Part shown: positions 6,231-31,830 of the stretch, in pieces
How positions within the stretch are numbered: position 1 is the stretch's first letter
How the letters are laid out: each line of letters begins with the position of its first letter
Origin: Candidatus Micrarchaeia archaeon
GTDB lineage: Archaea > Micrarchaeota > Micrarchaeia > CAILAH01
DNA length: 38,550 nucleotides
Direction: 5' to 3'
Assembly: GCA_049970015.1 (NCBI GenBank)
Contig: JBMFNT010000001.1
Location: forward strand, 1 to 38,550
Position numbers and translations under genes: made by a program
Notes under the pieces: model-generated
Seen by the model: the letters and a program-made list of their open reading frames with translations, nothing else
Databases searched by the model: none
What the model was told of the DNA's origin: nothing

Positions 6231-7058
6231 ATGCCTCCAAGCAAGAAAGAACCATTTATAGACTACTTGGCATCGTTTTTCCCTGACTTGCACAAGAAAT
6301 TGCGCATGGCTAAGATTAAGAAAGCTGAGAATGATTATATACGTGATGCCCTAATATACTCAGTCCTTGTTTTTATGATATTGCTTATTATGCTCGTGCT
6401 CTTGTTTATCACAGCAGGTATAAACCTTGCTTGGCTTTTGCTTATTGCACCCATAACCTTGCTTGCGTCTTTTCTATTTTTCATGAAGCGTGTTGATGTT
6501 ATAATAGCTTCACGTGAAAGGAAAATCGATAAAGAGCTGCTGTTTGCTGGGAGACAATTAGTGATTGAAATAAAAGCAGGTATTCCACTCTATGATGCCA
6601 TTACTCACTTAACAGCAGATTATGGTGAGGCAAGCAAGGTTTTTAGAGAAGTAATAGACAAGACAAACTTGGGGGTACCGCTCGATGTTGCAATGGAGGA
6701 TGTTGCAGATGAAACTCCTTCAAAGCCTTTCAAGCGTATTGTGCTACAAATGGTAAACTCAATACGGTCTGGGTCTGATATAGGAATTGCACTTGAGACT
6801 ATACTCGATCAGTTGTCACAGGAACAACTTATAGAGATAAAAGTATACAGCCAAAAGCTTAACCCATTGGGCATGTTCTATATGCTGTTCGGTATAATAG
6901 TGCCTTCATTGGGTGTTACGCTTGCAGTCACACTGCTAACATTTACAGGGGTTGCGCTAAGCCCTATGTTCTTATGGGGCATACTTGTGGTAATAATTAT
7001 CGTGCAGTACATATTCCTTACGATGATAGAAACATCACGGCCTAAGTTTGAGGTATAG
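6231..7058 (+). CDS. Type II secretion system F / TadC-FlaJ family pilus platform protein
   Basis: N- and C-terminal TM helices around a T2SSF domain (IKAGIPLYDAI, YGEASKVF, GVPLDVAM, SGSDIG). Confidence 0.88.
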   Translation: MPPSKKEPFIDYLASFFPDLHKKLRMAKIKKAENDYIRDALIYSVLVFMILLIMLVLLFITAGINLAWLLLIAPITLLASFLFFMKRVDVIIASRERKIDKELLFAGRQLVIEIKAGIPLYDAITHLTADYGEASKVFREVIDKTNLGVPLDVAMEDVADETPSKPFKRIVLQMVNSIRSGSDIGIALETILDQLSQEQLIEIKVYSQKLNPLGMFYMLFGIIVPSLGVTLAVTLLTFTGVALSPMFLWGILVVIIIVQYIFLTMIETSRPKFEV

Positions 7059-7070
7059 GAGGTTGTTTGA

Positions 7071-8117
7071 ATGGCATTCTCATATGAAAATGTAGGAAGA
7101 GTGTTTCCAAGAGGTATAGTACGCCTGGTAGGTAAGAATACATATATGGCTGGCATGACCCATGAGCCTGAGTGGATACTGGGTGCATTGCTGTCCTTTT
7201 CACTACTTCTTGGTGCATTGCTGTTTGTAGTACTTGTCATATCTACCGATCTGGTTTCTACATTTTCTTCACTGTTCATGGGGTTGGGTACTGTGGTTGC
7301 ACTTGCGATAGGCACCATTCTTATGTTTATATCAGTTGAGTTGTTCTCTTTTGCTCTCATGTCGATAGTGCTCTACGGTTATCTTTTGGTACAGATGGAT
7401 GCACGAAAGCGTGAGGTTGAGGCAGTACTCCCTGATTTCCTGCAGTTATCGGCAGCAAACGCGCGTGCCGGTCTTCCCATAGAACAGGCACTTTGGAGGG
7501 CTGCAACACCAGAGTTTGGTGCCTTGTCTAGGGAAGTTCAAACAGCTATGAAAAGAACATTCAGTGGTGAAGCGATATCAGATTCACTGACATATCTTTC
7601 AGATAGGTTCAATTCAAAGTACCTGCAAAGGACTGTAAGCGTTATCAAATTTGGCATAGAATCCGGTGGTGAGATTGGCGAAATACTCGAGAGGACGGCA
7701 TCTGACCTGAGAAAGATGCAGATTATGTATAAGGAGGCAAGCTCATCAATGCTTATGTATGTCATATTCATAACATTTGCTGCACTTATAGGTGCACCAT
7801 TCCTGTTTGCCGTTTCGTATAAGCTGATCGCAACATTGAGTGCCGTATGGATGGCAGTACCACCAACACAACAGTTTACATCGTTTGGCCTTATCTCTTT
7901 TTCACCACCAGAGATAAGTGCAGATGACTTTAGGCTGTTCTCAATACTATCGATCTCCATAACATCCATATTTGCATCTTTTATCCTATCAATAATAATG
8001 AGTGGGACAACAAGAGAAGGCATCAAGATGTTGCCTTTCTTTCTGATCGCAGGCCTTGGCCTATTGTTTATTTTCATTGGCATTGTAAACTCTTTGCTCT
8101 CGAATCTGTTTATATAA
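7071..8117 (+). CDS. Type II secretion system F / TadC-FlaJ family pilus platform protein (second paralog)
   Basis: LPDFLQLSAANARAGLPIEQAL, FGALSREV, ESGGEIGEILE; multiple TMs; GGAGGT SD upstream. Confidence 0.9.
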   Translation: MAFSYENVGRVFPRGIVRLVGKNTYMAGMTHEPEWILGALLSFSLLLGALLFVVLVISTDLVSTFSSLFMGLGTVVALAIGTILMFISVELFSFALMSIVLYGYLLVQMDARKREVEAVLPDFLQLSAANARAGLPIEQALWRAATPEFGALSREVQTAMKRTFSGEAISDSLTYLSDRFNSKYLQRTVSVIKFGIESGGEIGEILERTASDLRKMQIMYKEASSSMLMYVIFITFAALIGAPFLFAVSYKLIATLSAVWMAVPPTQQFTSFGLISFSPPEISADDFRLFSILSISITSIFASFILSIIMSGTTREGIKMLPFFLIAGLGLLFIFIGIVNSLLSNLFI

Positions 8118-8150: not shown

Positions 8151-8242
8151 GCCCCCGTAGCTCAGCGGTAGAGCACTCGCCTCGTATGTGTATGTAACAC
8201 ATTGAAAGCGAGGGGTCGTGGGTTCAAATCCCACCGGGGGCT
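8151..8242 (+). tRNA. tRNA-Thr(CGT) with 20-nt intron at 37/38 (intron 8187-8206); CCA not encoded
   Basis: Acceptor GCCCCCG/CGGGGGC, D arm GCTC/GAGC, anticodon stem CTCGC/GCGAG with CGT at 8183-8185, T arm GTGGG-TTCAAAT-CCCAC; TTTATATA box ~35 nt upstream. Confidence 0.95.
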
Positions 8243-16802: not shown

Positions 16803-17321
16803 ATGAAAGATGTTGAAAGGATAAATGAGGAAACAATAAGCAAGGGAGGGGTGCTGTTTCTTATGTACTTTGATTCGCATGCGACTTCCGAGGAAGCTGT
16901 AAAAAACAGGCTAACGGAGCTTTTTGCAAAAATCACTACTGAAAAAGGTGTGGTCTATGGAGTGGGAACAATTGAACCCGCAATAAAAGATGTAGTTAAT
17001 GGAAAGGAAACCTTCTCAACATCTGGTGAGATTAAGGTACTAACAAAAGATGTCAGAAGTGCTTTCAGGCTCGCAAGTGCATATGGGCCAGTGTATATAG
17101 AAGTGCTTTCGCCAGAAGAGGTGCATGTGAGCTTTTCGGAACTTCAGGAAACACTGAACGATGTGTCACAAGTGAGCTATAGCTTATCAAATTATATTGT
17201 AAAAAATACGTTAAAGGGCGATTCACTCAATCTATTCCTGAAGAATGTCAAGTATAGGGAACAGTTGGGTGAGAAACTAAGGAAGAGTGGTGGTAAGTAT
17301 GATAAAACAGAGGGGCATTGA
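16803..17321 (+). CDS. Hypothetical protein
   Basis: 172-aa ORF with typical composition; first gene of the apparent operon with the KaiC-like gene, trpS and acyP. Confidence 0.8.
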   Translation: MKDVERINEETISKGGVLFLMYFDSHATSEEAVKNRLTELFAKITTEKGVVYGVGTIEPAIKDVVNGKETFSTSGEIKVLTKDVRSAFRLASAYGPVYIEVLSPEEVHVSFSELQETLNDVSQVSYSLSNYIVKNTLKGDSLNLFLKNVKYREQLGEKLRKSGGKYDKTEGH

Positions 17322-18003
17322 TAAGATACCAAGCGGGATACCCGGGTTTGATGAAATTTCTGATGGTGGGTTTGTTAGGAATAGTATAATATCTCTTTCA
17401 GGAGGAGTGGGCGCTGGCAAGACCATATTTGGCATGCAGTTTTTGTACAATGGAATCACTGAAAATAACGAAAATGGGATGTATGTGTGTTTTGAGGAAA
17501 CAAAAAAATCAATGTATAGAAACATGCTCAAACTAGGATGGAACCTCAAGACACTTGAGGATTCACAAAAACTTACTTATCTCGCATATCCTCCACACGA
17601 AGTTGACCTGTTTTTTGATCAGGAAGATACACTCATAAACCTTATCGACAAGTTTGCTGTGAGCAGGGTGGTGTTTGACACTGTAACTATTCTGGGAATG
17701 CATTTTGACACAAAACGTGCAAGAAAGGAAGGTATGCTTAAGTTTATTGATAAGTTAAGGAAATGGGGGTGCACATCACTCCTCATAAGCGAGACACATG
17801 ACTATCCAAACATAGCTAAAAGTATCGAATCACTTGCAGATACTGTAGTACATCTGTATAATATCAGAGACAAGGGAAACAGAAAAAGGGGTATTGAAAT
17901 AATAGAAATGAGGGGATCAAAACATTCTACAAGTATACATCCGTTTACGATTGGTTCTGAAGGTATTGAAATTGATGCTAACTCTGTGCTTGAGGTGGAA
18001 TAG
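17287..18003 (+). CDS. KaiC/RAD55-like RecA-superfamily ATPase (single domain)
   Basis: IPSGIPGFDEISDGG, Walker A GGVGAGKT, FEE, RVVFDT, RGIEIIEMRGSKH; start may be 17299. Confidence 0.92.
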   Translation: MVVSMIKQRGIDKIPSGIPGFDEISDGGFVRNSIISLSGGVGAGKTIFGMQFLYNGITENNENGMYVCFEETKKSMYRNMLKLGWNLKTLEDSQKLTYLAYPPHEVDLFFDQEDTLINLIDKFAVSRVVFDTVTILGMHFDTKRARKEGMLKFIDKLRKWGCTSLLISETHDYPNIAKSIESLADTVVHLYNIRDKGNRKRGIEIIEMRGSKHSTSIHPFTIGSEGIEIDANSVLEVE

Positions 18004-19113
18004 TTGGGAATAAATCCATGGAGTTCAGAAATAGTACAGGCAGAAAAGCTGTTTGAGGAGTTTGGGTTGAAACCAATCAGCAATGAGCTGCGTGATAGGT
18101 TTAAGGAGTATTACATTTTTAGCAGAGGTATTATAATTGCCCACCGCGATTTTGATAGGTTTGTTGTGGAGTATGAGAAAGGAAAACAAGTTGCTGTAAT
18201 GTCCGGAATAAAGCCGACAGGTCCTTTCCATATGGGAAGTCTACTGACTGCAGCTGAACTCACAATCCTGCAGAAAATGTTTGGGGCAAAAGTATTCTAC
18301 TCAATTGCTGACCTGGAAGCATATGCTGACAATGGGCAATCATATGAAAATAGCGAAGCGTTTGCAATTGACAATGTGGCTGACCTTCTTGCTTGTGGGC
18401 TTGATGAAAAAAATGCATACATTTATAGACAAAGTAGGGAAATGCGTGTGATACAACTTGCCAACATATTTGCAACACATACTACAAGAGCTACCATGGA
18501 AGCAATATATGGTGAAAGGCATATGGGCCTATACATGTGTGCAATGGTACAAATGGGGGACATATACCTGCCACAGCACAATGATTTCGGGTATGAGCAA
18601 GTAGTTGTTCCGGTTGGACTGGATCAAGACCCACATATACGGCTTGCAAGGGACCTTGCATATAAAGAGCACAGACTAAAGCTTAAACCTCCTTCCGCAA
18701 TATATCACAAGACAATACTGAGTCTTGATGGTCAAACAAAAATGTCAAAAAGAAATCCTGATTCCATGCTGATGCTTAACGAGAATGAACAAACCCTGAA
18801 AAGAAAACTTGGTAATGCATTCACAGGAGGGAGAGAGAGTATTGAGGAGCAGAGAAAACTTGGTGGGCGTGCAGAGATATGCCCAATATATCATTTGGGT
18901 TTTAACATGTTTGATATGGATGATAAAAGGAATAGTGAGAGATGGGACAGGTGTTATGGTGGAAAACTACTCTGCGGTGAATGCAAAAAAGAGATGTTTG
19001 AAATAATAATTGATTGGATGAGAAAGCATAAGGAACTAAAGGATGAAAAAATGCATATTGCAAAGGAGATCGTGAAAGGTAAGTTCTATGATTCTGGCAA
19101 AAATCATAGCTAA
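18004..19113 (+). CDS. trpS: Tryptophan--tRNA ligase
   Basis: INPW, SGIKPTGPFHMGS, VPVGLDQDPHIRLARD, KMSKR, AFTGGR, CGECK. Confidence 0.95.
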   Translation: MGINPWSSEIVQAEKLFEEFGLKPISNELRDRFKEYYIFSRGIIIAHRDFDRFVVEYEKGKQVAVMSGIKPTGPFHMGSLLTAAELTILQKMFGAKVFYSIADLEAYADNGQSYENSEAFAIDNVADLLACGLDEKNAYIYRQSREMRVIQLANIFATHTTRATMEAIYGERHMGLYMCAMVQMGDIYLPQHNDFGYEQVVVPVGLDQDPHIRLARDLAYKEHRLKLKPPSAIYHKTILSLDGQTKMSKRNPDSMLMLNENEQTLKRKLGNAFTGGRESIEEQRKLGGRAEICPIYHLGFNMFDMDDKRNSERWDRCYGGKLLCGECKKEMFEIIIDWMRKHKELKDEKMHIAKEIVKGKFYDSGKNHS

Positions 19114-19372
19114 GGGTAGGGTACAAGGAGTTTTTTACAGAGCAACTGTAAGAGAGATTGCAAATAAAATAGGAGTGGGGGGGTATGTAAGAAACCTACC
19201 GAACGGAGATGTTGAAGTGGTTTGCGAATGCAAGGATGAAGAACAGCTCCATGAATTTGTAAAGGCAATCGAAATAAAAAATAATTTTGGACCCTACACA
19301 GAAGAGATAAAAGTGGTTAAAAAGCAGGAGAAAAGAGGTAGTACAAGCACGGATTTTGTGATAATTTACTGA
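19088..19372 (+). CDS. acyP: Acylphosphatase
   Basis: GRVQGVFYR, GYVRNLPNGDVEV. Confidence 0.95.
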   Translation: MILAKIIAKGRVQGVFYRATVREIANKIGVGGYVRNLPNGDVEVVCECKDEEQLHEFVKAIEIKNNFGPYTEEIKVVKKQEKRGSTSTDFVIIY

Positions 19373-19379
19373 GTACTCT

Positions 19380-20537
19380 CTATGCCTTTTTCTTTGGTAA
19401 AAAAGCAAGTTTTTTCTTCTCCTCCTCTTTCTTTACTGTGTCCACTACACTTTTATACCCTTCGATGTCCAATACCCTGTACTTATTAAATTTCTTTTCG
19501 AAGGTATCCTCAGGAACAAGTGAAAATACTACCCCTCCTTTACTACTAGAGGATTCAAAAATCATATGATGTTTCTTGCCATCTTTTTCGATAATACCAT
19601 AGTCTATAACTACATGGCCATGCTCAGTGTCAAGCACAGTCTTGCTGGCAGATATTATGAGAGGATAACTACTTTCTGAAAAATCATAATCTTTAACTAA
19701 ATGGGTACTACCGTTATATATGTAAGTTGTAGATGGATATCTATTGTATTCTTTCAGCACTCCTTCAAACAGGTGTGCTACCAGCCCTGAACAGTCAAAG
19801 CCATGCTTCGGTGAAGTACCTCCATACCTGTAAGGCTTACCAAGAAGTTCTGAAATCTGTTTCTTTGTATTTTCATCTAGTGGAAGAGTTGAAATATCTT
19901 CCTTGCTCAAATACTCAATCTGCTCTCTTGCACTTGCAGGCTTCTTCTCAACCTTAGCAACCAATCGTGGAATTGGCGATACTTTTTTCACTTGCACTGG
20001 CTGTTCCTCAAGCACTCCAGAAACAAACGCAAAGAATGTCCTCTTGCCAAATATCCCATCTATCTCAATCTGGGTACTCGCATAGTCTCCAAATTTACTT
20101 TCTACTAGATAATTCTGCAATTCCGCAACGGTTTTGACACCCATATATTCCAAAAATACTTTTCTGTTTCCATACAATACTTTATTAGCTATAGTATCAT
20201 CTATATATGGATATGCAATCTGACGAATATCTCGTAAGTATCCTGCCACCTTTTTGTTCCCATTATATGCCTCTCTCTCCATCCACGCGAACAATGCAAC
20301 AAGGGTATTCTTACCAAAGATGCCATCTTCATTCAACTTGAGAGAAGTGTTTCTCAGCTCTTTGTTAAGATATTTCTGAAGATCAACCACTGAATTTATA
20401 TCCATCTTAGACTTAACAACGTCCATAACTTTTTTCTCAATCTTGCGTGCAAGCTCGTTCGTGAAGGATTTACGAATAAGCTCTCTCTCCAGAGCATATG
20501 CCATATCCTTATCGATCTTTTGTGTTTGTGCCTCCAT
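19380..20537 (-). CDS. NlpC/P60 family cysteine hydrolase with two peptidoglycan-binding (PG_binding_1)-like repeats
   Basis: LLGKPYRYGGTSPKHGFDCSGLV, GHVVI, IFESSSSKGGV; two V..LQ.YL...DGIFGK.T..A repeats; start moved to ATG 20537 (385 aa) with a TTTATAAA box at 20589-20596. Confidence 0.85.
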   Translation of the reverse strand: MEAQTQKIDKDMAYALERELIRKSFTNELARKIEKKVMDVVKSKMDINSVVDLQKYLNKELRNTSLKLNEDGIFGKNTLVALFAWMEREAYNGNKKVAGYLRDIRQIAYPYIDDTIANKVLYGNRKVFLEYMGVKTVAELQNYLVESKFGDYASTQIEIDGIFGKRTFFAFVSGVLEEQPVQVKKVSPIPRLVAKVEKKPASAREQIEYLSKEDISTLPLDENTKKQISELLGKPYRYGGTSPKHGFDCSGLVAHLFEGVLKEYNRYPSTTYIYNGSTHLVKDYDFSESSYPLIISASKTVLDTEHGHVVIDYGIIEKDGKKHHMIFESSSSKGGVVFSLVPEDTFEKKFNKYRVLDIEGYKSVVDTVKKEEEKKKLAFLPKKKA

Positions 20538-20626
20538 AGATAATAATTTGCTAATAATTATTTTATATCTGTATGAGTAGTAAGATGATTTATAAATCTT
20601 TGTATTTAATTGCATAAAAAGTAATA

Positions 20627-21054
20627 TGCAAAGGTAAAAACAAGTACCTAAGGAAAAACCATCCCAAGTTTCTGTTTCTGTGGACGATGTTAGGATATTA
20701 TTTGAATTCATATATCTTAAGAGAATCCGTACAGGCAAATACCAAGTCTTCTTGGATAACAATAAAACACTGCCGGAGTTATTAGATTCAGTAGGAGGAG
20801 AAATCAAAACGTGGGCGGGAGTGTGTCAAGTCTTTTGAGTGCTCTTCTAAAAGAAGCGGTAAAAGCAATTGTTTTTAGAAAAACTAAATGCACAACTGCT
20901 GAAAAGCGCAAAAAAAGGAGATCTGAAGGGTGTGCAGGATGCAATTAATGAAGGTGCAAATGTGAATGTAAAAAATGATTATGGGCAAACCGCACTAATC
21001 TATGCAGTACATAATGGCCATACATTGTTTTTAGAGAAGGTGCTGTGAGTCAAC
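20627..21054 (+). pseudogene. Degraded ankyrin-repeat gene
   Basis: 20884-21048 reads LNAQLLKSAKKGDLKGVQDAINEGANVNVKNDYGQTALIYAVHNGHT; upstream ATG 20627 is followed by an in-frame TAA and frameshifts. Confidence 0.75.
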
Positions 21055-21122: not shown

Positions 21123-22346
21123 ATGAGCATATTCAACAAGGTACATAAAAGGAGTATGTACTCAACACTTAAGAATGAGCTCCCTGAAAGACATCATGAA
21201 ATAATATTCAGCGCTTTTAAGGAAAACCCATCAATGCTCAAGTATTTTAAGAAAAGGAGTATACTCGCATACCCATTCGTGAGATTGTGGGAGATTACAA
21301 AGATGATTGTCTCCAAAGAAACATACCTGAGAAAAGAAGAGATGAGGTCCGCATTGTATTATCTTTGTGAAAAGCATCTGGATGATGGTGAAATGAGATA
21401 TACCAACATGGAGGCTGCCATAAAAAACATGCTCAATAAAGCAATAAATACAGTAAGTGGAAATGTGCTCAAGGATAGCCCAGATGGCAAATTATCCATA
21501 ATTATGCGTGATCTTATTAGTAGTGGGATCGATACGAAGAAAGTTTTAAGGGATAAGGAATGGTACAGGGATCTTATTCATGATGCGGCCGGTGCGGCTG
21601 CAGTAGCTGCACTGCTATATACGTACGCTCCGGAATACAAAGCACCGGAAAGAATTGTTGAGGTACCGGTTGCAAAGCAGGACTGTAATTGTTCTTTGTA
21701 TGACCCTTGCATTGAACAATTGAAAGAAACAATGGAAGAGACAAAGCCCCAGGCACAAACTGTGTATAAGACAAAAGTAAAAACCGTGTATAAGGAAGTG
21801 CCAATGCAGGTCAATTGTGATGATGTATGCAATCCAAAAATTGATAGTTTGATGAATAGATGCTATGAAGAAATGTATAAAAAAGATAAAACCATAGAAA
21901 ATAGAGATCAGACCATACAGAGAATGGATCAGGCGATACAGGAATACAAAATGATCTTGATGAGAAAGGTTGATTACATATTTGAAACACTATTTTCTAA
22001 GGATAAGTACAACGAAGACAAGAGATACTATGAGAACAACATTCGCCCATGGTTTGCCAACGAACTGAACAAAGATTTTGAGAAGATGTCCAGATTCATA
22101 TTATACATAGGTGGAGAACTTTTTGAAAGAGAAAAAGATAAGAAAGGTAAGATAGTGAAGGTGAAACACTTGAGATCTTCAAATTACTTGGATGACATAA
22201 TAGAAGACTGTGATGTTACCTATCCAGGTGGCAACGTTTGCAGGGATGGAAACAGGGTTCCTGGAAATATGGAAGCAGTGTTTGAATTTTACAAAAATAT
22301 TTATAAAGGGCCGTATGGTAACATGATACTGCGCAAAGATAAGTAA
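21123..22346 (+). CDS. Hypothetical protein with central hydrophobic segment, Cys-rich and coiled-coil C-terminal part
   Basis: 407-aa ORF with promoter and GGTGA SD; AAGAAAVAALLYTY segment; several Cys clusters. Confidence 0.8.
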   Translation: MSIFNKVHKRSMYSTLKNELPERHHEIIFSAFKENPSMLKYFKKRSILAYPFVRLWEITKMIVSKETYLRKEEMRSALYYLCEKHLDDGEMRYTNMEAAIKNMLNKAINTVSGNVLKDSPDGKLSIIMRDLISSGIDTKKVLRDKEWYRDLIHDAAGAAAVAALLYTYAPEYKAPERIVEVPVAKQDCNCSLYDPCIEQLKETMEETKPQAQTVYKTKVKTVYKEVPMQVNCDDVCNPKIDSLMNRCYEEMYKKDKTIENRDQTIQRMDQAIQEYKMILMRKVDYIFETLFSKDKYNEDKRYYENNIRPWFANELNKDFEKMSRFILYIGGELFEREKDKKGKIVKVKHLRSSNYLDDIIEDCDVTYPGGNVCRDGNRVPGNMEAVFEFYKNIYKGPYGNMILRKDK

Positions 22347-23532: not shown

Positions 23533-26151
23533 TTACCTTATGAATTCAGAAAATTCGTTTATTGTTAGGGGTATTACTGTCTCATTTAACAGGGCAATCT
23601 TTATTGATGCACCCCTCTTCCCATACTTGCTTATGCTTTCTATAAACTCCCTTTTTGAGTCATCGTCTGCAAACAGCAAAACTGTCCTCTCCTCACCTGA
23701 AATGGCCCTTTCTATTCTTTCAAGTAAGTTCTCACCAGTGCATATGATTATTTTCAGGTTTTCATTTCTCATTTTTATGTACGTATCACAATCCTCACGC
23801 TCCCCAAGCTTTGTGAATGGTATTGCCGCAGGTATGAGGATATCTCGCATTTTCCTGAACATTGCGAGATACTTATAGTTATATCTGTCTGTCTCCCATT
23901 TTGAAAGTGCATACAAGTCCAAGTACATCTTTATGTCTCCCAGGTGCATCAACTTATCTAGGATTATTTGTGTATTATAATCTCCTATTAGTATAGGCCT
24001 GCCCATATAACTGATTTTCCTGAATCCATTTTTTATCTCTTTGAGCGAGAGCGGCATACGTTCCCACCCATACTCGGCATTGATCCTCTCAAATATATCA
24101 AATATCATATCCTTCTTTACATATATCTTCTTTTTTGCCCTGGCCTCAAACTCCGGGATATCCAGTGAATACTTGACTTTTTCACGTGCCTTGAATGCAA
24201 TGCCGATTGCAACAATGCCCATAGTAAGTACAATTACAAACCAGAACCACCACTGCTCATAATACATTCTGGATATACTTGAAACACTCTCATAAACAAG
24301 ACCTTTCTGAACCTCAAACCTGAAAGTATGCTTCCTGCCCTCCTCTAAAGGTGTATCTACCTTAAAATAAGCAAAGGTTTTTTCACCTGACTGCGTGGTT
24401 GATATTTTCTGCCTAATCTTGTCATCTATAACAACATACGTATCCTTCAAACTACTTGTGATATCCTCACCTTCAAGTTCAGGTACTTCAAGACTAAATA
24501 CAAACATCTGTTCTTTCCAATCGATCCTTTCCGGAATAAGGTTTATCTGTGGGACTATCAGGACTGATTTTGCAAACGTATATGGAGGTGTTGATGGCGC
24601 ATCAAGCCTTATTATATATACCCCATGCTCAATCTTTGGGTCATATACTGATTTTAGTGTATAATCTATGGGTAATATATACTGTGCACCAAAGAAGATC
24701 TCATCAGCAATCTCTCCACTACTGTTTATCAAACGCAGCCTAATCTCAGTGGCCTGCTTGAACCTGTCAATGCTCTCATTGAAGTATGCCTCAACATCAA
24801 AAGTTCTCCCGCTTATTTTTTCTGAGAGTGCATAAGGCGAATTGCTTATACTGCCTTTCTGTGTTTTTGATATCTTGAGATACTTACTCTTAACATCTAC
24901 AATTTCATTATTCTCATTATACGCCCGCGTATAGATTCTTGCATACCCTTCCTGTATACCTGCTTTTCCTTTTGTTATCAAGGTCTCGTACACATCATTA
25001 CTGTCTTCAAGCTTGTAATAGCTTTCCGGTGTTGCTTCAATATATCTATCATACTCTTTAAGCCATGCTGCATTCTTTATGAGCATAGCAATGTCTGTTG
25101 CGGCCTCCTTGCCATTATTCCATCCACTGTCAAGCGTATTAGGTATTATTACGAGATATCCCTGCCCTCCCCAATTCACAACAGGAATTCCGTTATTTGC
25201 AAGCTTTACATCGGCAGTGTACTGTACATTCTTTTGATACGCAGGTACCACACCATACCTAACGTCTTTCAATAGCATGCCATCAAGACTGGATCTTGTA
25301 CTTGTAATATCTATCCCAAGCGTAGTTGAAACTGCTTCCACAGAGTAGTCAGTGCCTGGGAAAATCCTTCCCCTTCTCTCATCCATCAGCCCTTGGTCAA
25401 ACCCAAACCCTATATAGATTATAGTGGCGCCTTTCCTTGTAAGCTCAACAGCATTTTTACCACTCCCATGTGGTGATGCAAGTGAAGCTGGCATAAATCC
25501 AGTTGGAACAATTATCAGGGGATGCGACCCTTCAGGCAGGCTTTCCAGCTCTTCCAGGTATATTTCGTTCACTGACACACCAAACTTTGAGAATTCTCTC
25601 TGCAACTCATCCTTGAACTCGCTGTAACGGCTGCCCTGCTCACGCCGTGAGTTCAGCACGTATATCCCATCATACAACGGGCCGTCAGATGCTTCCATAA
25701 ACACTCCTATTTCCTTTACATTGTTCCCGCGAGCATGCAAAATCACATATGGGGTATATACCCCGTGACCATTTATGTTGGCCAACCCGTAATCTATAAT
25801 ATCCAATTGCAGTGAAGGAACTTCCCGTGCTACAGGTGCAACAACACCAATGCCTGCACCTTGCATCATGAACAGTATGTACGCAAAAATGATACCTATT
25901 AATATGAGCACAGCACCCAAATACACAAACAGCTTTCTCATCACTCCTTTGAGAATTGGTTTATTCTTCTGCATTGTCTCTGCGCTTTTCACATCCCCCT
26001 TACCTGTCTTTGTCTTAATAAATGCCAGTGCAATCTCACGTATTTTATCCATCCCGACAGACTTTTCCTTGAGTGGTTTAAACTTCACAGTATATTCTTT
26101 TTTCTTCTTTAGCGTAAACTTGTATGACTTACCCTCTGCCATAAAATACAC
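23533..26151 (-). CDS. Large membrane protein (two TM helices, ~530-aa external region, cytoplasmic C-terminal domain); last gene of the VirB4-like operon
   Basis: TMs LFVYLGAVLILIGIIFAYILFMM and WWFWFVIVLTMGIVAIGIAF; start may be 26142. Confidence 0.85.
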   Translation of the reverse strand: MYFMAEGKSYKFTLKKKKEYTVKFKPLKEKSVGMDKIREIALAFIKTKTGKGDVKSAETMQKNKPILKGVMRKLFVYLGAVLILIGIIFAYILFMMQGAGIGVVAPVAREVPSLQLDIIDYGLANINGHGVYTPYVILHARGNNVKEIGVFMEASDGPLYDGIYVLNSRREQGSRYSEFKDELQREFSKFGVSVNEIYLEELESLPEGSHPLIIVPTGFMPASLASPHGSGKNAVELTRKGATIIYIGFGFDQGLMDERRGRIFPGTDYSVEAVSTTLGIDITSTRSSLDGMLLKDVRYGVVPAYQKNVQYTADVKLANNGIPVVNWGGQGYLVIIPNTLDSGWNNGKEAATDIAMLIKNAAWLKEYDRYIEATPESYYKLEDSNDVYETLITKGKAGIQEGYARIYTRAYNENNEIVDVKSKYLKISKTQKGSISNSPYALSEKISGRTFDVEAYFNESIDRFKQATEIRLRLINSSGEIADEIFFGAQYILPIDYTLKSVYDPKIEHGVYIIRLDAPSTPPYTFAKSVLIVPQINLIPERIDWKEQMFVFSLEVPELEGEDITSSLKDTYVVIDDKIRQKISTTQSGEKTFAYFKVDTPLEEGRKHTFRFEVQKGLVYESVSSISRMYYEQWWFWFVIVLTMGIVAIGIAFKAREKVKYSLDIPEFEARAKKKIYVKKDMIFDIFERINAEYGWERMPLSLKEIKNGFRKISYMGRPILIGDYNTQIILDKLMHLGDIKMYLDLYALSKWETDRYNYKYLAMFRKMRDILIPAAIPFTKLGEREDCDTYIKMRNENLKIIICTGENLLERIERAISGEERTVLLFADDDSKREFIESISKYGKRGASIKIALLNETVIPLTINEFSEFIR

Positions 26152-26154
26152 CGG

Positions 26155-26910
26155 CTATCTCCTTATTTCGAGGTATCCTTCATACACCATCTTGTTAAGC
26201 AACTGCTCAACCCTGCTCTCACGCACTTTGTACAACTTGCAAAAATCATCTATGTTAATTTCGTTACCATGCTCTCTTATCCATTCCTGTATTTTCAGCA
26301 TTAGCGTGTCATCTGAATATTTCTCAAGCTCATCAACCCTCAGTTTGAGCTGGTCCCTCTCATTTCTCATCTCTATTAACTCTCTGCTCAGCTTGTTATT
26401 ACTCTCCTCAAGCTTTTCAATCTGCCTCTTCAGCTCGTTAACTCTTGACAGCAAGGTATCATACTTGACATACAATTTCTCGTAGTTAGATGTTGCAAAC
26501 TCACCTATCTCAGCAAGGAATACATCAAGTACCTGCATAAAACTTGTTATGTCTAATGTGTATGCATCGCCCATTACTGCAAGCACATTTGACACGTACC
26601 TTAACAGCTCCAGTCTTCTTTTCCTTAGGCTTATCTCTGGAGTGACTGTGTACATAACCTCAATGCTATCTGTATTTAGATATATTATGATAAAAAGGTA
26701 GGGTATGTTATCTATATCCCTGCTCTCAACTTTTATGAGAGCCACCCTATCTTTAAGCTCGACAATCTCTATCCCAGGAATACTGCTCGCCTTTTTTGCA
26801 ATATCCTTTAAGCTAATATTCAGCTTTGCAGCTATCTTGAACGATGCACCCATCGGCTCAGAAATAATGTCATTATGTTTTTCGCTTGCAGGTGTGCTTT
26901 TTTCAGCCAT
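26155..26910 (-). CDS. Coiled-coil protein with C-terminal winged-helix-like domain
   Basis: Heptads LLSRVNELKRQIEKLEESNNKLSRELIEMRNERDQLKLRVDELE; INIDDFCKLYKVRESRVEQLLNKMVYEGYL. Confidence 0.85.
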   Translation of the reverse strand: MAEKSTPASEKHNDIISEPMGASFKIAAKLNISLKDIAKKASSIPGIEIVELKDRVALIKVESRDIDNIPYLFIIIYLNTDSIEVMYTVTPEISLRKRRLELLRYVSNVLAVMGDAYTLDITSFMQVLDVFLAEIGEFATSNYEKLYVKYDTLLSRVNELKRQIEKLEESNNKLSRELIEMRNERDQLKLRVDELEKYSDDTLMLKIQEWIREHGNEINIDDFCKLYKVRESRVEQLLNKMVYEGYLEIRR

Positions 26911-27300
26911 CTACTTAACCTCCCTAAGCCTTGGCACATACTTTATGTGTGCAAGTATAAGCATGAAGATAAGCAACAATATGCCTGCCAGAAAGCTGCT
27001 TAATGACAGGTTCAGAAGAATCAGGATGATCATTATAACTATACCTGCTCCTCCATACATCAACAGTGACCTCTCAAACTCGCCGCGCCTTTTCTTGTAG
27101 GAGTCCATACATTTATCGCATACAACAAGGGTGTTTCCTTTTTCAGCATTGAGCCTTTTTTTTACCCATCTTATAGCGGATATTACATAATCCTCCTCAA
27201 CCCTCTGGCCATGAGTCCTCTGGGTGCACATAATGCACACTTCTTTTCCTACACCATCTCCTTTTTCAACCTTATGCTTTTTAGGTTTAGATTTATCCAC
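26911..27300 (-). CDS. Small membrane protein with CxxC...CxxC zinc-binding motif and two C-terminal TMs
   Basis: CIMC, CDKC; hydrophobic hairpin; abuts or overlaps both neighbours. Confidence 0.85.
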   Translation of the reverse strand: MDKSKPKKHKVEKGDGVGKEVCIMCTQRTHGQRVEEDYVISAIRWVKKRLNAEKGNTLVVCDKCMDSYKKRRGEFERSLLMYGGAGIVIMIILILLNLSLSSFLAGILLLIFMLILAHIKYVPRLREVK

Positions 27301-28861
27301 CTAACTCAACCTCCGTGCTTTCACCACGCACCCCCAACTTCTTATAGTCGGCTTCAGTGAATATATTTATGATAACACTATCCTCTACACCAAGGTCTTT
27401 TAGGAACCCAGTAATGTCACCCCTTTCAACACCATACCTCTCAAGCATTATGACAAAGTCAACAACATCCATATGCCTATTCAATTTGTCAAATGTTGAA
27501 GTAATCTCCTCCACCTTATCATCAGCAAGGCCGAACAACCTCAGCTTTCTTCGTAATTCATCACGTTCGAACGAAAGTGTCTTACCCATAATCTCCTCCC
27601 CTCCAACAAGTTTTGGCTCAACATCAAGGAAGTACTCAACCACCGGCTCCTCCCCTTCAATCCTCGAAAGTATGAAAGTTTCAGGGTATGGAGTGCTTGT
27701 TTGCAGCGCCATGTTTACGGCGGCCTGCCCAACACCAAGTTTTGCAATCTGTTTTCTCATATATTCGCTAAAGTTAAGTGTATTCTGCAAGTAATCCAGA
27801 AACTTTTCAAACTTGACACGTAATATGAATGTTGTTCCAACATTTGAGAATATTGCTTCGCTTATATCAGTAGGGTTTTGTGATGCAACCAATAACGCAA
27901 ACTGGTATTTCCTACCTTCCCTCACAATCATAACAGCATCGCTATTTTCATCCTTTGCAATCTTCCAGGCCTCATCAAGCACTATTATGAGTCGTATCCC
28001 CTTCTCCTTTGCCCATCCCGCGGCGCGCATTTTCTCCTTTATGAACTGCAGTATTGAAAGCGCGGCAAGCGCCCTCATCGTCTCATCAGGTAATCCGGAC
28101 AGGTCGAGGTCAACAAGACCTGAGGAGATTAGTTCATCCAGCTTGATTGTGCTTTGTTCTGCAAAGAAATCCTCACCTTCCCTAGTAAACTTTTTTATTC
28201 TGTAGATTGCATTCTCCAGCTCAACCGGGAACTCATAAGTCCCCGAGCTAAGCTTGTCCTCAAGTATCCTCACAACATCCTTGAGTGTTGGCGGCACCAG
28301 TAGATTACCCAGAGCATCTTTCTGGTTTTTTTCTGATAACCTGAATCCCTTATCAACATATGCTTTTTCGATTGCCTCTTCACTCAGCCTTTTTTGTTCC
28401 GGGTAGTTCCCAATGTCAGTCAGTATTTCAAGGCTCCTTATAACTTGCTTGATCCTATCAAGTGGTCTCATGCCTGCAAGGTCAAGCAGGTTCAAATAAG
28501 ATCCTTTCCCAAGCGAAAGTATTTTTCCACCAGTCTGTTTTACCCATTCCCTATACTCTCCTGCCCAGTCTATTATGAGTGCATTGCTCTTCCACACGAA
28601 AGATGCACGCGTTAGAAAGGTTTTGATGAAATACGATTTACCTGCACCTGTTATACCAACAACTGCAATATGTGGATTTGTTACAGTCTCATAGCTCCAG
28701 TGGAATGGCTCATTGAACACTGCCGTTCTTCCAATATATATTGAGTTTTTTGGGTTTCCAACAATAAGCTCGGCTGGAGGCTCTGGAGGCCTTGTTATAA
28801 TTCCTCTGCTTGCGACATCAGAGCTGTACAGCTTCTTGTTTTTTACCTTTATTACACCCAT
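27293..28861 (-). CDS. VirB4/HerA-FtsK superfamily ATPase (VirB4 C-terminal-domain/CedB-like)
   Basis: NPHIAVVGITGAGKS (Walker A), IIDWAGEY, IIVLDEAW (Walker B), REGRKY (Arg finger), ASQNPTD; ATG 28861 has a GGTGA SD. Confidence 0.9.
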   Translation of the reverse strand: MGVIKVKNKKLYSSDVASRGIITRPPEPPAELIVGNPKNSIYIGRTAVFNEPFHWSYETVTNPHIAVVGITGAGKSYFIKTFLTRASFVWKSNALIIDWAGEYREWVKQTGGKILSLGKGSYLNLLDLAGMRPLDRIKQVIRSLEILTDIGNYPEQKRLSEEAIEKAYVDKGFRLSEKNQKDALGNLLVPPTLKDVVRILEDKLSSGTYEFPVELENAIYRIKKFTREGEDFFAEQSTIKLDELISSGLVDLDLSGLPDETMRALAALSILQFIKEKMRAAGWAKEKGIRLIIVLDEAWKIAKDENSDAVMIVREGRKYQFALLVASQNPTDISEAIFSNVGTTFILRVKFEKFLDYLQNTLNFSEYMRKQIAKLGVGQAAVNMALQTSTPYPETFILSRIEGEEPVVEYFLDVEPKLVGGEEIMGKTLSFERDELRRKLRLFGLADDKVEEITSTFDKLNRHMDVVDFVIMLERYGVERGDITGFLKDLGVEDSVIINIFTEADYKKLGVRGESTEVELGG

Positions 28862-28865
28862 GCAT

Positions 28866-29669
28866 TCACCCGGTAAGTTCAATCAGTTCATCATAGCTGG
28901 TTGGGATTACAAACTCCCAATCCAGACACATCTCAGCATCTTCACCTACAAGGTCTATAACCTCTACATTAAGGTTGTTTGAGAGGACAGCTTTTATCTC
29001 GCGTGCCTGGGACAATGCCTTGTCGCGCGCCTCCTGAGGTGTAATTCCTTTGGCAAAAGTGGCTGCATACATGACCGCTCCAATAGGTTTTACACCACCT
29101 GCAAGCCTTTTGAGGAGATTTTCATAAACATCCTTCTCTTTCTGCCACCTATCTATTTTTATGACATCTGGCTCAGCTTTCTCCATCTCCCTTTTAATCC
29201 TTAGACTATATTCATACACCTTTGCTTGCACACTTTCCCTGTATGCGCTCACATCCTTTGTTGACATGAGCAAGCTTATTTTGGCAGGCACATTCATCGA
29301 TGCTATAGCATTCTCAAAATCCTGCAGGTATACATCCATCCTTTCTTCCCCCCTCCCTGATACCTCCTCACGCTCAGGTATGTTCATAAGCAGGTATTTT
29401 GCAGCAATGTATTTGTTCCCAATTTTTTTGATTATTACATCTTGCCCTGGTGGAAAAACATACTCCCCTTTCTTATAAGTAATATTGAAGATTCTTGTAA
29501 TAAGCGGTGTTATGAGGTATCCTATGTAAATGAATGCCCCCACAATACCTGCCATGATGACTGCTAGCACAAACAATGGTATGCCCGCATGAAATGATAT
29601 GTATAATGCAACAAGTACCACGAACGCAACTCCTACAATCATATACAGCTTTGGGATACGTTTTTGCAT
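28866..29669 (-). CDS. Membrane-anchored protein, paralog of 29676-30440, resembling a VirB4 N-terminal domain
   Basis: Two N-terminal TMs, coiled coil, KPIGAVMYAATFAKG...AREIKAVL...CLDWE. Confidence 0.8.
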   Translation of the reverse strand: MQKRIPKLYMIVGVAFVVLVALYISFHAGIPLFVLAVIMAGIVGAFIYIGYLITPLITRIFNITYKKGEYVFPPGQDVIIKKIGNKYIAAKYLLMNIPEREEVSGRGEERMDVYLQDFENAIASMNVPAKISLLMSTKDVSAYRESVQAKVYEYSLRIKREMEKAEPDVIKIDRWQKEKDVYENLLKRLAGGVKPIGAVMYAATFAKGITPQEARDKALSQAREIKAVLSNNLNVEVIDLVGEDAEMCLDWEFVIPTSYDELIELTG

Positions 29670-29675
29670 ATGTGT

Positions 29676-30440
29676 TCACCATTCAGGAGACATTGCCTCC
29701 CATTCATAGCACATGCGCATTCTGTTATGCGCAAGTTCATCTACCCTCAATGACATCCCGCTTGTGAATGTTGCCTTGATTTCCTTTGCCTTAACACGGG
29801 CTGCACTAAGCGCAGAATCTTTCGTTGCACCTTTTGCAGATACTGAAACTATATATGCCACTGCCATAGGTTTGCCTGTTCCTTTATACAAAGACTCCAA
29901 CCTTCTTTCCCACATCAGCTTTTCCCTTTCAAGGACTTCTATTTCTCTCTCATCAACCTTCTTTTTTTGTCTCTCAGTTGCAATTGCATTCTCAACCTCT
30001 GCTTTCTTCTCCTCTATGTTTTCAATATACTTACGCATATCTCTCTCATATATTATTGCACACAGCTTTATTGGATCTCTTATACTGGAGATAGTACGTT
30101 CAAAGTATCGTGCATACTCCTTTATCTCATCATCACTCTTGTTAGTCATTGTTTCATACACATCAAGATTCAGAAATACTGTGGCTATGTAATCCTCGCC
30201 TTCCTTCTTTATCAGCGCATCCTCGCTTGCTGGCAACTCGTACTTGTAATCAACATAAATATCTTTCTTGAACTGGGTCAGGAATGGCACATATATATTT
30301 CCCCATGCATAGAACAGGTATGATACTCCTGCAAGCACTATTGCGATAAGAGCAATTGGAGCAAACTGGCTTGCAAACAAGAGAAGTACAAAGCTTGCTC
30401 CAAGCGTACCATATGCGAGCATTTCATTAAAATCCATCAT
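29676..30440 (-). CDS. Membrane-anchored protein, paralog of 28866-29669, resembling a VirB4 N-terminal domain
   Basis: Two N-terminal TMs, coiled coil, KPMAVAYIVSVSAKG...AKEIKATF...CYEWE. Confidence 0.8.
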   Translation of the reverse strand: MMDFNEMLAYGTLGASFVLLLFASQFAPIALIAIVLAGVSYLFYAWGNIYVPFLTQFKKDIYVDYKYELPASEDALIKKEGEDYIATVFLNLDVYETMTNKSDDEIKEYARYFERTISSIRDPIKLCAIIYERDMRKYIENIEEKKAEVENAIATERQKKKVDEREIEVLEREKLMWERRLESLYKGTGKPMAVAYIVSVSAKGATKDSALSAARVKAKEIKATFTSGMSLRVDELAHNRMRMCYEWEAMSPEW

Positions 30441-30775
30441 ATCATCTCTTCACAAGTATATGGATATGTTTCAAGGTCAAAATTGAATGCATCTGCAACT
30501 ATATGGACAATTGCAGGAGCGCTCGCAGCAATGATTAAGCCAAGTATTGCACCTATCACCATAGTAGTTGCCCATACAGTTGCTCTTGAGCGCATCTCAG
30601 CACCGAGTACCTGGCCTGCAGCATAAACGAGCCCACCAAAAACAATGAGTATGAATGCGATTATTGGCATCATGCCTCTCGCTTGATAGCATAGGTTGTT
30701 TATCGTTTCACCTACACCCGCGCTTACTATAGCACTCAATGCAAGCACAAGGACAAGTATATTAACAAGTTTCAT
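30437..30775 (-). CDS. TrbC/VirB2-like pilin (112 aa)
   Basis: Signal peptide (MKLVNILVLVLALSAIVSA), then two hydrophobic helices separated by a short charged loop (GAEMRSRA); start moved to ATG 30775 with GGTGG SD and TTTTTAAA box. Confidence 0.72.
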   Translation of the reverse strand: MKLVNILVLVLALSAIVSAGVGETINNLCYQARGMMPIIAFILIVFGGLVYAAGQVLGAEMRSRATVWATTMVIGAILGLIIAASAPAIVHIVADAFNFDLETYPYTCEEMI

Positions 30776-30890
30776 GTTTCCACCGGTTCTAATATCTACA
30801 ATAACATTTAAAAAATCCACACCAGTATTGTTTGGCCTTATTTTGGTAATGCACTTAATCATATTAAAACTTGCCATACAAAAGTTAGCT

Positions 30891-31268
30891 ATGCCTTCTA
30901 TACGGTATGAAAAGGCCCCAGATGTTGAGCGAATGCTGTATTCAGTAATGGAAAAATACAGGGATGAGTTCCCACACATAAATGAGTTTCGCGTGCTTTG
31001 TGTTCGCTCGTACAATAGTTCAGCACATGCATATGCACGGATATGGAGCATGCCACAGGCGTGGAAAACAGCACTTGACATAGATACATTTTATGTACTA
31101 GAAGTACTGCATGAAAATTTTGACCATCTTCCTGAACATGAAAAGGAAAAGACGCTTCTTCACGAACTGTTACATATACCAAGAACATTCAGCGGTGCAC
31201 TGCTGCCTCATGTGTACGGAAAAGGCCAGAAGCATATAGAAGAAAAAGTAAGAAGAATTTTTAAGTGA
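30891..31268 (+). CDS. Predicted zinc metallopeptidase (small HExxH family)
   Basis: AYARIW, YVLEVLHENFD, TLLHELLHIP; start moved to ATG 30891. Confidence 0.85.
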   Translation: MPSIRYEKAPDVERMLYSVMEKYRDEFPHINEFRVLCVRSYNSSAHAYARIWSMPQAWKTALDIDTFYVLEVLHENFDHLPEHEKEKTLLHELLHIPRTFSGALLPHVYGKGQKHIEEKVRRIFK

Positions 31269-31348: not shown

Positions 31349-31672
31349 TCAATGACCACCTGCTTTTTTGAGCAATTCCACAACATCTTTATGACCATTC
31401 TCGGCTGCATACCTTAGTGCGGTCAGGCCCAAAATATCCTTTGCATTCACATCAGCACCTTTCTCTAAAAGCAATTTTACAATTTCTGTACGGCCATCAC
31501 GGGCTGCATACATTAGCGCCTTATTTGTTGCACAATTAGTTGTAAGCATTATAGATGCAGAGAGTAGAGTAATTCCAGCAATTCTTTTAATCTCTCTAAG
31601 TATTTTTGACTTTTTAGCATCATCCTTTTTCAAGGATTCCACATTAGCCAGTGGTTTATTTTGGATATCCAT
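31349..31672 (-). CDS. Short ankyrin-repeat protein with N-terminal membrane/lipoprotein-like anchor
   Basis: ALMYAARDGRTEIVKLLLEKGADVNAKDILGLTALRYAAENGHKDVVELL; IAGITLLSASIMLTTNC. Confidence 0.88.
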   Translation of the reverse strand: MDIQNKPLANVESLKKDDAKKSKILREIKRIAGITLLSASIMLTTNCATNKALMYAARDGRTEIVKLLLEKGADVNAKDILGLTALRYAAENGHKDVVELLKKAGGH

Positions 31673-31830
31673 ATACAACCACCTTTTCAGACAAATGATA
31701 TTATGTATTGCTTTCTATATAAATGTTTTCTCTACTTATTCATACTGGTATAGTAAACCTTTCTCCGGAGCATCAAACACAAACATCTTAAACAGGACTG
31801 GCCGGTCATAAAGTGGAAATATCTAGAAAC

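Follow-up and report, generated by a model that had tools for sequence, protein, structure and literature searches.

The predicted hydrolase gene and its parts

The window analyzed in this study, a stretch of 38,550 nucleotides from a Candidatus Micrarchaeia archaeon (GenBank assembly GCA_049970015.1, contig JBMFNT010000001.1, positions 1 to 38,550), makes up the opening 38.5 kb of a contig of 83 kb, within an assembly of 783 kb and 72 contigs that is 90% complete. Our subject is the gene of a predicted murein hydrolase, P0001, lying at 19380..20537 on the minus strand, on which all features of the protein are given below. It encodes 385 amino acids (aa) plus a stop codon, arranged as an N-terminal module (N-module), a linker, an NlpC/P60 catalytic domain, and a basic tail. 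An earlier reading of this DNA, made without database searches (hereafter the sequence-only reading), had described a peptidoglycan hydrolase architecture with an intact catalytic Cys and His at this place, and the 385-aa frame is free of stops. A second 385-aa protein (P0002), 99% identical to P0001, comes from a 20,689-base contig that may or may not belong to a separate assembly.

The longest open reading frame (ORF) in the hydrolase frame begins at a TTG codon at 20807, which would add a hydrophobic stretch (Kyte-Doolittle mean of 1.48). We rejected this start because all homologues begin at an aligned M-x-A-Q N terminus, because P0002 was likewise called at 385 aa, and because a TATA-like box precedes the ATG by 24 to 31 nucleotides in 5/5 loci. 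In the window, this box reads ATATAAAA (20561..20568, minus strand), and an A/T-rich TATA-like element stands at a similar distance in all five aligned upstream regions (the window, L002, L003, L004, and L005), both according to a by-eye reading of the alignment. The box, whose function is putative, would point to an mRNA with little or no leader and support 20537 as the start.

The NlpC/P60 (papain-like) domain spans residues 206 to 360 (19458..19922), as supported by Pfam (PF00877) and VIA-align. The family assignment of the sequence-only reading agrees with Pfam, in which NLPC_P60 (PF00877, MEROPS C40) scored 30.8 bits against a gathering cutoff of 23 (E = 3.1e-7); the six-frame search of the genome gave 32 bits. 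The catalytic codons were found exactly where that reading had placed them: Cys249, the presumed nucleophile (FDCSG, 19791..19793), and His308, the presumed general base (GHV, 19614..19616), are each invariant in 8/8 close-clade sequences, and His308, as well as Asp248 and Gly251 on either side of Cys249, is nearly invariant in a 31-sequence alignment. The third triad residue is provisionally Glu328 (19554..19556), whose alignment column holds Gln or Glu in 8/8 clade members, whereas a wider MAFFT alignment sets Phe327 opposite the canonical His. With a score above the gathering cutoff, a predicted papain-like fold, and the conserved Cys and His, the protein is a member of the NlpC/P60 family.

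The AlphaFold2 (AF2) model of the full protein has a mean predicted local distance difference test score (pLDDT) of 80.2 and displays a complete NlpC/P60 fold for residues 218 to 360. In VIA-align, this predicted domain matched MepS (8xud_I) with a Z score of 10.9 and a root mean square deviation of 3.3 over 118 residues, and LytE with a Z score of 10.7. MepS (8xud), LytE (8i2e and 8i2f), CwlO (8wt3), and RipB together gave Z scores of 9.3 to 10.9 over 112 to 119 residues, and RipA gave 8.2 over 113 residues. Z scores of at least 8 were reached by 24 of 48,161 chains, the titles of which are NlpC/P60- or CHAP-type wall hydrolases, except for one diffocin baseplate chain. Like the solved enzymes, the model carries its Cys at a helix start and its His at a strand start, but it differs from them by an identity of 16 to 29%, by a longer beta-hairpin after His308, and probably by Glu/Gln in place of the usual third His. 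Sequence profiles of the close clade, compared to the Protein Data Bank (PDB), matched LytE, MepS, and others around the Cys motif only (best E = 3.3e-8).

An exhaustive search of 1.84 billion representatives returned just 3 proteins at an E value of ≤1e-30 and 10 at ≤1e-10, and the catalytic clade is far from bacterial enzymes. The close relatives that carry a name are all Micrarchaeota ("Candidatus Micrarchaeota," "Micrarchaeia," and Candidatus Bilamarchaeum). Outside the family, one match (P0009) belongs to the cluster of a C40 peptidase from the Bacillus cereus group, and no donor lineage could be named among the nonfamily matches, few of which carry names.

The N-module, the presumed wall-targeting part, comprises residues 1 to 180 (19998..20537), and residues 1 to 185 folded alone by AF2 form one compact ten-helix unit (pLDDT of 91.2, predicted template modeling score of 0.87). 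Both internal repeats reported in the sequence-only reading are there, 87 residues apart within this single unit: repeat 1, VVDLQKYL...DGIFGKNT (residues 50 to 90, motif 50 to 78; 20268..20390), and repeat 2, VAELQNYL...DGIFGKRT (residues 137 to 176, motif 137 to 166; 20010..20129). Their profiles align to each other in hhalign with a probability of 97.9% (E = 5.4e-13). Against a canonical PG_binding_1 profile built from bacterial matches and one domain of the archaeon's own genome, repeat 1 gave a probability of 90.8% (E = 1.2e-6) and repeat 2 gave 95.8% (E = 6.9e-9), each over columns 5 to 38 of 65. The Pfam PG_binding_1 match in P0001 covers profile positions 4 to 30 of 57, short of a complete domain, and the six-frame search gave 13.5 bits for PG_binding_1 at the hydrolase. 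Among the relatives, P0010 (29.5 bits), P0032 (24.4), and L004 (24.6) exceed the PG_binding_1 cutoff of 23 as whole proteins, and P0032 reaches 35.5 bits for PG_binding_3 (cutoff of 24.6). Hence, the peptidoglycan-binding-like character of the repeats stands, but not their description as two PG_binding_1 domains: they are half-domain motifs within one helical module, which we regard, from these profile comparisons, as a probable, derived relative of the PG-binding clan (PG_binding_1/3) in which two repeats have fused.

Over 11 aligned sequences, the invariant residues of the N-module are E17, L53, G72, T78, L101, R105, Y109, P110, and D151. The DGxFGxxT motif is not kept across the family, and the invariants include L101, R105, Y109, and P110 of a middle helix. 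The alignment contains no conserved stretch of 7 to 10 columns, and a contig scan with a single protein gave 124 pattern matches, with no relatives recovered by tblastn. Structure searches with the whole module gave no match: by VIA, none of 48,161 PDB representative chains at a Z score of ≥5 (best, 4.9, an unrelated protein); by Foldseek, none in the PDB at an E value of ≤0.001, with the PG-binding muramidases Sen1395 (E = 1.3) and TtsA (E = 2.9) as the best; and none at ≤0.001 among the BFVD viral structures (best E = 0.69). The sequence profile of the module likewise found nothing significant in the PDB (best, MinC, E = 0.035). Among the ESM Atlas clusters listed as nearest, whether in sequence features or in structure, those with a common Pfam family all belong to PG_binding_1/3; the structure matches, all of them PG_binding_1 clusters, have TM scores of only 0.26 to 0.44. 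This failure to assign a known fold does not prove that the fold of the N-module is new. Between the N-module and the catalytic domain, residues 181 to 205 (19923..19997) form a flexible Pro/Lys-rich linker, with a pLDDT below 50 for residues 185 to 204 in the full model.

Exchange of catalytic domains and genomic setting

One type of N-module is fused to three different catalytic domains. It precedes NlpC/P60 in the window protein, P0006 (genome G003), P0007, and P0012; Peptidase_M23 in P0010 (G002), P0076, P0108, P0109, and the loci L010, L011, and L014 of another family (44.7 to 81.6 bits); and Amidase_2 in P0032 (G007; 104.8 bits) and L004 (G005; 118.9 bits). Within a single genus (g4), the slot linked to acyP holds NlpC/P60 in G003 and Amidase_2 in G005 and G007. 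An N-module tree of 11 sequences displays two groups, each with 95/93 support, one of M23 proteins only and the other with all three types and internally unresolved. The catalytic-domain labels require at least two changes, and the N-module tree requires three. This swapping of catalytic domains on a shared module is, in our view, the strongest and most informative new evidence that the sequences offer. One of the M23 forms, P0010 (L003, 901 to 2112, minus strand), has QVH in place of the usual HxH motif, which the other M23 forms keep.

The module is rare: of 401 genomes sampled from the phylum, 8 have a match at an E value of ≤0.001, two of these 8 by a single repeat-sized stretch only. In the archaeon's own genome, P0001 is the sole NlpC/P60 protein, and no M23, Amidase_2, or SLT domain scores above the cutoff. 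Between this genome (G000) and G003, identity is 35% for the hydrolase, compared to 71% for trpS and 88% for a VirB4/CedB-like ATPase, and the hydrolase gene thus evolves fast.

Several observations argue that the gene is native to this Micrarchaeia (DPANN) genome. The window encodes the archaeal markers S3Ae and L15e (ribosomal proteins), Nop5, RNase P Rpp14 and p30, and CDC48. The G+C content of the hydrolase gene is 38.1%, compared to 40.8% for the genome. A block with genes for a KaiC-like ATPase, trpS, and acyP, assigned by Pfam, lies at 17287..19372 on the plus strand and is convergent with the hydrolase gene. The whole KaiC-trpS-acyP-hydrolase block, including a 172-aa gene, is found in G003, and the order trpS-acyP-hydrolase is found in G005 and G007; in G006, which has no hydrolase, KaiC-trpS-acyP is followed by a T2SSF gene. 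Convergence of acyP and the hydrolase is therefore seen in four genomes (G000, G003, G005, and G007) of two genera. Because this flanking order recurs in sister genomes, the gene occupies a slot of varying content next to a conserved block and is very probably no assembly chimera, and the chimeric bacterial insert that the sequence-only reading had itself envisaged does not agree with the linkage found.

Two observations could speak for a chimera made in assembly, for contamination by a bacterium or phage, or for a decaying relic without function. The region at 19 to 22 kb has the lowest G+C content of the window (0.36 to 0.37). In addition, a public hot springs metagenome run (X1) contained 0.33 of the sampled words (a second run, X2, gave nothing), and 15 short contigs of X1 aligned to the region, 14 of them at ≥99% and at a depth of 2 to 5, but none bridged the acyP-hydrolase junction and the bin 19211 to 19411 had a depth of 0, these contigs being short and of low depth. 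Against such an origin stand the same gene order in three other genomes, archaeal genes on both flanks within an 83-kb contig, an intact frame with conserved catalytic residues, and, out of 50,697 phage records, just one with a match, which is limited to 31 residues. We consider this explanation very improbable. A phage endolysin was likewise rejected, as the neighbors are trpS, acyP, KaiC, and a GT4 glycosyltransferase, with an order kept in the sister genomes.

Some features of the surroundings deserve mention in their own right. In the window, trpS and acyP overlap at 19088 to 19113, and one low-depth contig of X1 has a joint at 19001/19098 that goes back 98, within the trpS 3' end and the acyP start. 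ARAGORN called a transfer-messenger RNA in L005, which we discarded as spurious because it overlaps acyP and the genome is archaeal. Two small ankyrin-repeat ORFs lie at 20869 to 21048 (plus strand) and 31349 to 31678 (minus strand); the 59-aa one of the two, just upstream of the hydrolase, stops partway through a repeat, possibly as the remnant of a truncated gene. A 407-aa protein without a family match (21123 to 22346, plus strand) occurs in 8/9 family genomes at 31 to 37% identity and sits a few kilobases from the VirB4/CedB-like ATPase gene in G003, G004, and G002. This ATPase, of VirB4/HerA type (27293 to 28882), lies within a seven-gene cluster (23533 to 31081, minus strand) mostly without Pfam matches, a candidate for a machine of DNA import or of a type-IV-like kind. 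Its best NCBIfam models are CedB (85.7 bits) and CedD, far below their cutoffs, and it is 78 to 88% identical over all 8 sister genomes, far above the conservation of trpS. Its co-occurrence with the hydrolase was considered and set aside, since the ATPase is present in 9/9 family genomes regardless and offers no discrimination. Two adjacent genes for T2SSF-family (PilC/FlaJ-like) membrane proteins are found at 6231 to 8117 (plus strand), the gene after acyP in G006 being of the same family. Farther away, a tRNA-Thr(CGT) gene at 8151 to 8242 (plus strand) measures 92 nucleotides against a fully matched Rfam model of 71 positions, which suggests an intron.

Other proteins of these genomes also carry PG_binding_1 sequences. 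A second leaderless protein (G000:C21:12636-13340, plus strand; L015, 1027 to 1731), truncated by the contig end, has a complete canonical PG_binding_1 domain (Pfam, 41.2 bits; six-frame search, 43.6 bits), and its N terminus, MAQRQ, is as in the hydrolase family. Weaker PG_binding_1-like pieces occur in a 577-aa protein on contig C11 and in ORFs of 526 to 1539 aa in sister genomes, including those without the hydrolase.

Comparison with known wall hydrolases and the matter of export

Modular peptidoglycan hydrolases of archaea were described by Strock et al. (2025, PLoS Biol, PMC12352652). They reported such hydrolases, defined by at least one Pfam catalytic domain together with at least one Pfam wall-binding domain, in 175 of 3,706 archaeal genomes, prominently in Nanoarchaeota. 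In haloarchaea, they described a module of two PG_binding_1 domains on which the catalytic domain has been repeatedly replaced, and two archaeal hydrolases with PG_binding_1 modules that kill a bacterium (PMC12352652). Vigneron et al. (2022, PMC9723730) found murein lytic transglycosylases (GH23) in Woesearchaeota and read them as means of attack on bacteria. The idea of a cross-domain attack is thus already in print (PMC12352652), and the present case is less surprising for it.

Like the modular haloarchaeal hydrolases Woldo and Danwoldo and their relatives (PMC12352652), the window family is archaeal and combines PG-binding repeats with a murein hydrolase domain, has one binding module with varied catalytic domains (M23, Amidase_2, and glucosaminidase in the Woldo/Danwoldo relatives), and is patchy among close relatives. 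Unlike them, the window protein has its module at the N terminus, as one fused unit of ten helices that bears two half-motifs, is signal-less, and comes from Micrarchaeia. The GH23 enzymes of Woesearchaeota (PMC9723730) are likewise murein degrading and from DPANN archaea but belong to a glycosidase class, to another phylum, and to large proteins. By the class definition of Strock et al. (PMC12352652), the catalytic domain of P0001 passes, whereas the binding domain is 0.8 bits short of its cutoff. The string "Micrarchae" had no match in 12 of the 13 supplementary files of that paper (PMC12352652), and a full-text literature search found no paper pairing "DPANN" with "NlpC." The concept is therefore known, and the new elements are the lineage, a module in which half-repeats are fused, a form with a basic tail but no signal peptide, and the three-way exchange of catalytic domains at a fixed slot.

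On the bacterial side, PG_binding_1 plus NlpC/P60 proteins of Bacillota (P0003, P0004, P0005, P0050, and P0097; P0004 is named "peptidoglycan-binding protein [Clostridia bacterium]") have the same order of parts, i.e., repeats, linker, and C-terminal NlpC/P60, and share the motif GxPYxxGGxSPxGFDCSG with the window protein. Unlike it, they start with signal sequences and carry complete PG_binding_1 domains. Of the three proteins compared in the triad region, P0004 has His as the third residue, and P0003 and P0005 have Gln. They match the query at 29 to 55% identity over 8 to 41% of its length (E = 1e-5 to 7e-5), and no recent donor is evident.

The sequence-only reading had noted a basic tail and no evident Sec signal, and both observations stand. 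The C-terminal helix and polybasic tail cover residues 361 to 385 (19383..19457), and the protein ends in KKKLAFLPKKKA. The net charge of its last 12 residues is +6, matched by just 3 of 670 long ORFs of the genome. Sister proteins of the same family (f1) with other catalytic domains have basic C termini as well (...TRKKKT, ...RTRKA, ...KPKKRA, ...RRKKRA, and ...RRSKAT), and the M23 proteins of the other family (L010, L011, and L014) are without basic tails. The highest Kyte-Doolittle mean over 19 residues is 0.88. Polycationic C termini help some phage lysins through outer membranes, and basic C termini mark type IV secretion substrates. We speculate that the polybasic tail may serve binding to anionic envelopes, or export.

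Alternatively, the protein could be a salvage enzyme that never leaves the cytoplasm and obtains amino acids and sugars by trimming muropeptides or gamma-glutamyl peptides that the cell has imported. Such a role is consistent with a protein devoid of signal peptide and membrane helix and with a genome reduced to 783 kb, whose owner is likely auxotrophic. Nevertheless, polymer-binding modules on flexible linkers are typical of enzymes acting on insoluble walls, and the exchange of endopeptidase, M23, and amidase at one slot, together with the fast divergence, looks like an interaction gene rather than a metabolic one. Moreover, known signal peptides were reported for 67 of 210 archaeal peptidoglycan hydrolases (32%), so that most enzymes of this kind are without known signals (PMC12352652). 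Altogether, we see little likelihood in the salvage role.

Predicted function and its meaning

We consider it probable that P0001 is a modular, lysin-like murein hydrolase of a Micrarchaeia archaeon, with a predicted activity directed at bacterial walls. The N-module, as a derived PG_binding_1/3 relative made from two half-domain repeats, would dock the protein on murein, and the flexible linker would connect it to an NlpC/P60 cysteine peptidase acting through Cys249, His308, and probably Glu328. This peptidase would cut stem peptides, most likely at the gamma-D-glutamyl bond as LytE/CwlO-type enzymes do. The search for Mur_ligase_M gave no match in the 90%-complete genome, although the same search matched in 14/14 control genomes. 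Thus, the archaeon appears to be without a bacterial-type wall of its own and shows no murein synthesis genes, and because of this the target would be the walls of bacteria that it encounters. The purpose could be antagonism, reaching a bacterial partner or prey, or the release of wall fragments, and the N-module would be retained while NlpC/P60, M23, and Amidase_2 domains are exchanged in a fast-evolving gene. A bacterial-wall target for an archaeal NlpC/P60 enzyme had been proposed by the sequence-only reading, and relatives with M23 or Amidase_2 on the same N-module strengthen the case for murein. Since all three swapped domains are murein hydrolases, bacterial peptidoglycan is the likely substrate. 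In favor of this lysin-like role are the lack of a Mur-ligase gene, the three murein-specific families on one module, and a gene that is dispensable, patchy, and fast evolving.

The envelope of an archaeon would be the other conceivable target, either the cell's own, a contact site, or the pseudomurein, S-layer, or gamma-glutamyl polymer of an archaeal host, with PG-like domains repurposed. DPANN archaea usually attach to archaeal hosts, and a strongly diverged N-module with no structural match, a DGxFGxxT motif that varies across the family, and the further leaderless proteins with PG_binding_1-like pieces in the genome are all compatible with such a target. However, the catalytic domains swapped on the module come from three families that are unrelated to one another and each specific for bonds of murein. 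One of these families, Amidase_2, cleaves the bond between N-acetylmuramic acid and L-Ala that is absent from pseudomurein; that no Mur-ligase gene was found in the genome also counts against an archaeal envelope. Pfam matches to P0001 at an E value of ≤0.1 are just NLPC_P60, PG_binding_1, PG_binding_3, and Peptidase_C92, with no pseudomurein-binding repeat, so that pseudomurein, the second target offered by the sequence-only reading, is not borne out. A pseudomurein endoisopeptidase of the PeiW/PeiP type, which needs binding repeats and a transglutaminase-like C71 domain, was ruled out by the NlpC/P60 fold and by the absence of such Pfam matches. An archaeal envelope as the target appears unlikely to us.

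Several points weigh against a lysin-like hydrolase aimed at bacteria. The NLPC_P60 match spans just profile positions 1 to 39 of 105, i.e., the region of the Cys motif, and the remainder of the domain is drawn from a predicted structure in which residues 260 to 310 have a pLDDT near 60. Each repeat covers the first half only of PG_binding_1, and Pfam PG_binding_1 scores 22.2 bits against a cutoff of 23 in P0001 (residues 49 to 78). Because the whole N-module is without a structural match, we infer murein binding from distant motif homology. The 385-aa protein has no signal peptide, membrane helix, or recognized export signal (Sec/Tat), and for this reason extracellular action is an assumption. 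The whole protein was matched in 4/8 sister genomes and the gene is missing in the other 4, so that the hydrolase would be dispensable. The family is known from sequences and predicted structures, and a bacterial target is not what the known hosts of cultured Micrarchaeota, the wall-less Thermoplasmatales, would lead one to expect.

A bolder form of the lysin-like role would be a dedicated lysin slot, with a lineage-specific docking fold that has no solved counterpart, swapped catalytic domains, and signal-less export by the polybasic tail. Delivery could then pass via the highly conserved VirB4/CedB-like machine or via a cell-cell bridge. We regard this form as quite unlikely; if true, it would mean that some Micrarchaeota, a group whose known hosts are archaea without walls, physically breach bacteria and so act as parasites or predators across domains by a novel route of delivery.

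If the predicted hydrolase is active, it would provide evidence from Micrarchaeia for weapons or tools against bacterial walls, extending a phenomenon that was experimentally shown for haloarchaea only and inferred for Woesearchaeota. It would also point to bacterial partners or victims of a DPANN lineage that in culture relies on archaea without walls, and it raises the question of how signal-less hydrolases exit archaeal cells. Because the binding module scores just below the cutoff, screens based on Pfam thresholds would undercount such enzymes. Retention of the module with swaps of the cutting domain fits the published idea of archaea attacking bacterial walls. Finally, this new and compact module for wall targeting, on which catalytic domains can be interchanged, would be an experiment of nature on how lysins are built from modules and might serve as a scaffold in lysin engineering.

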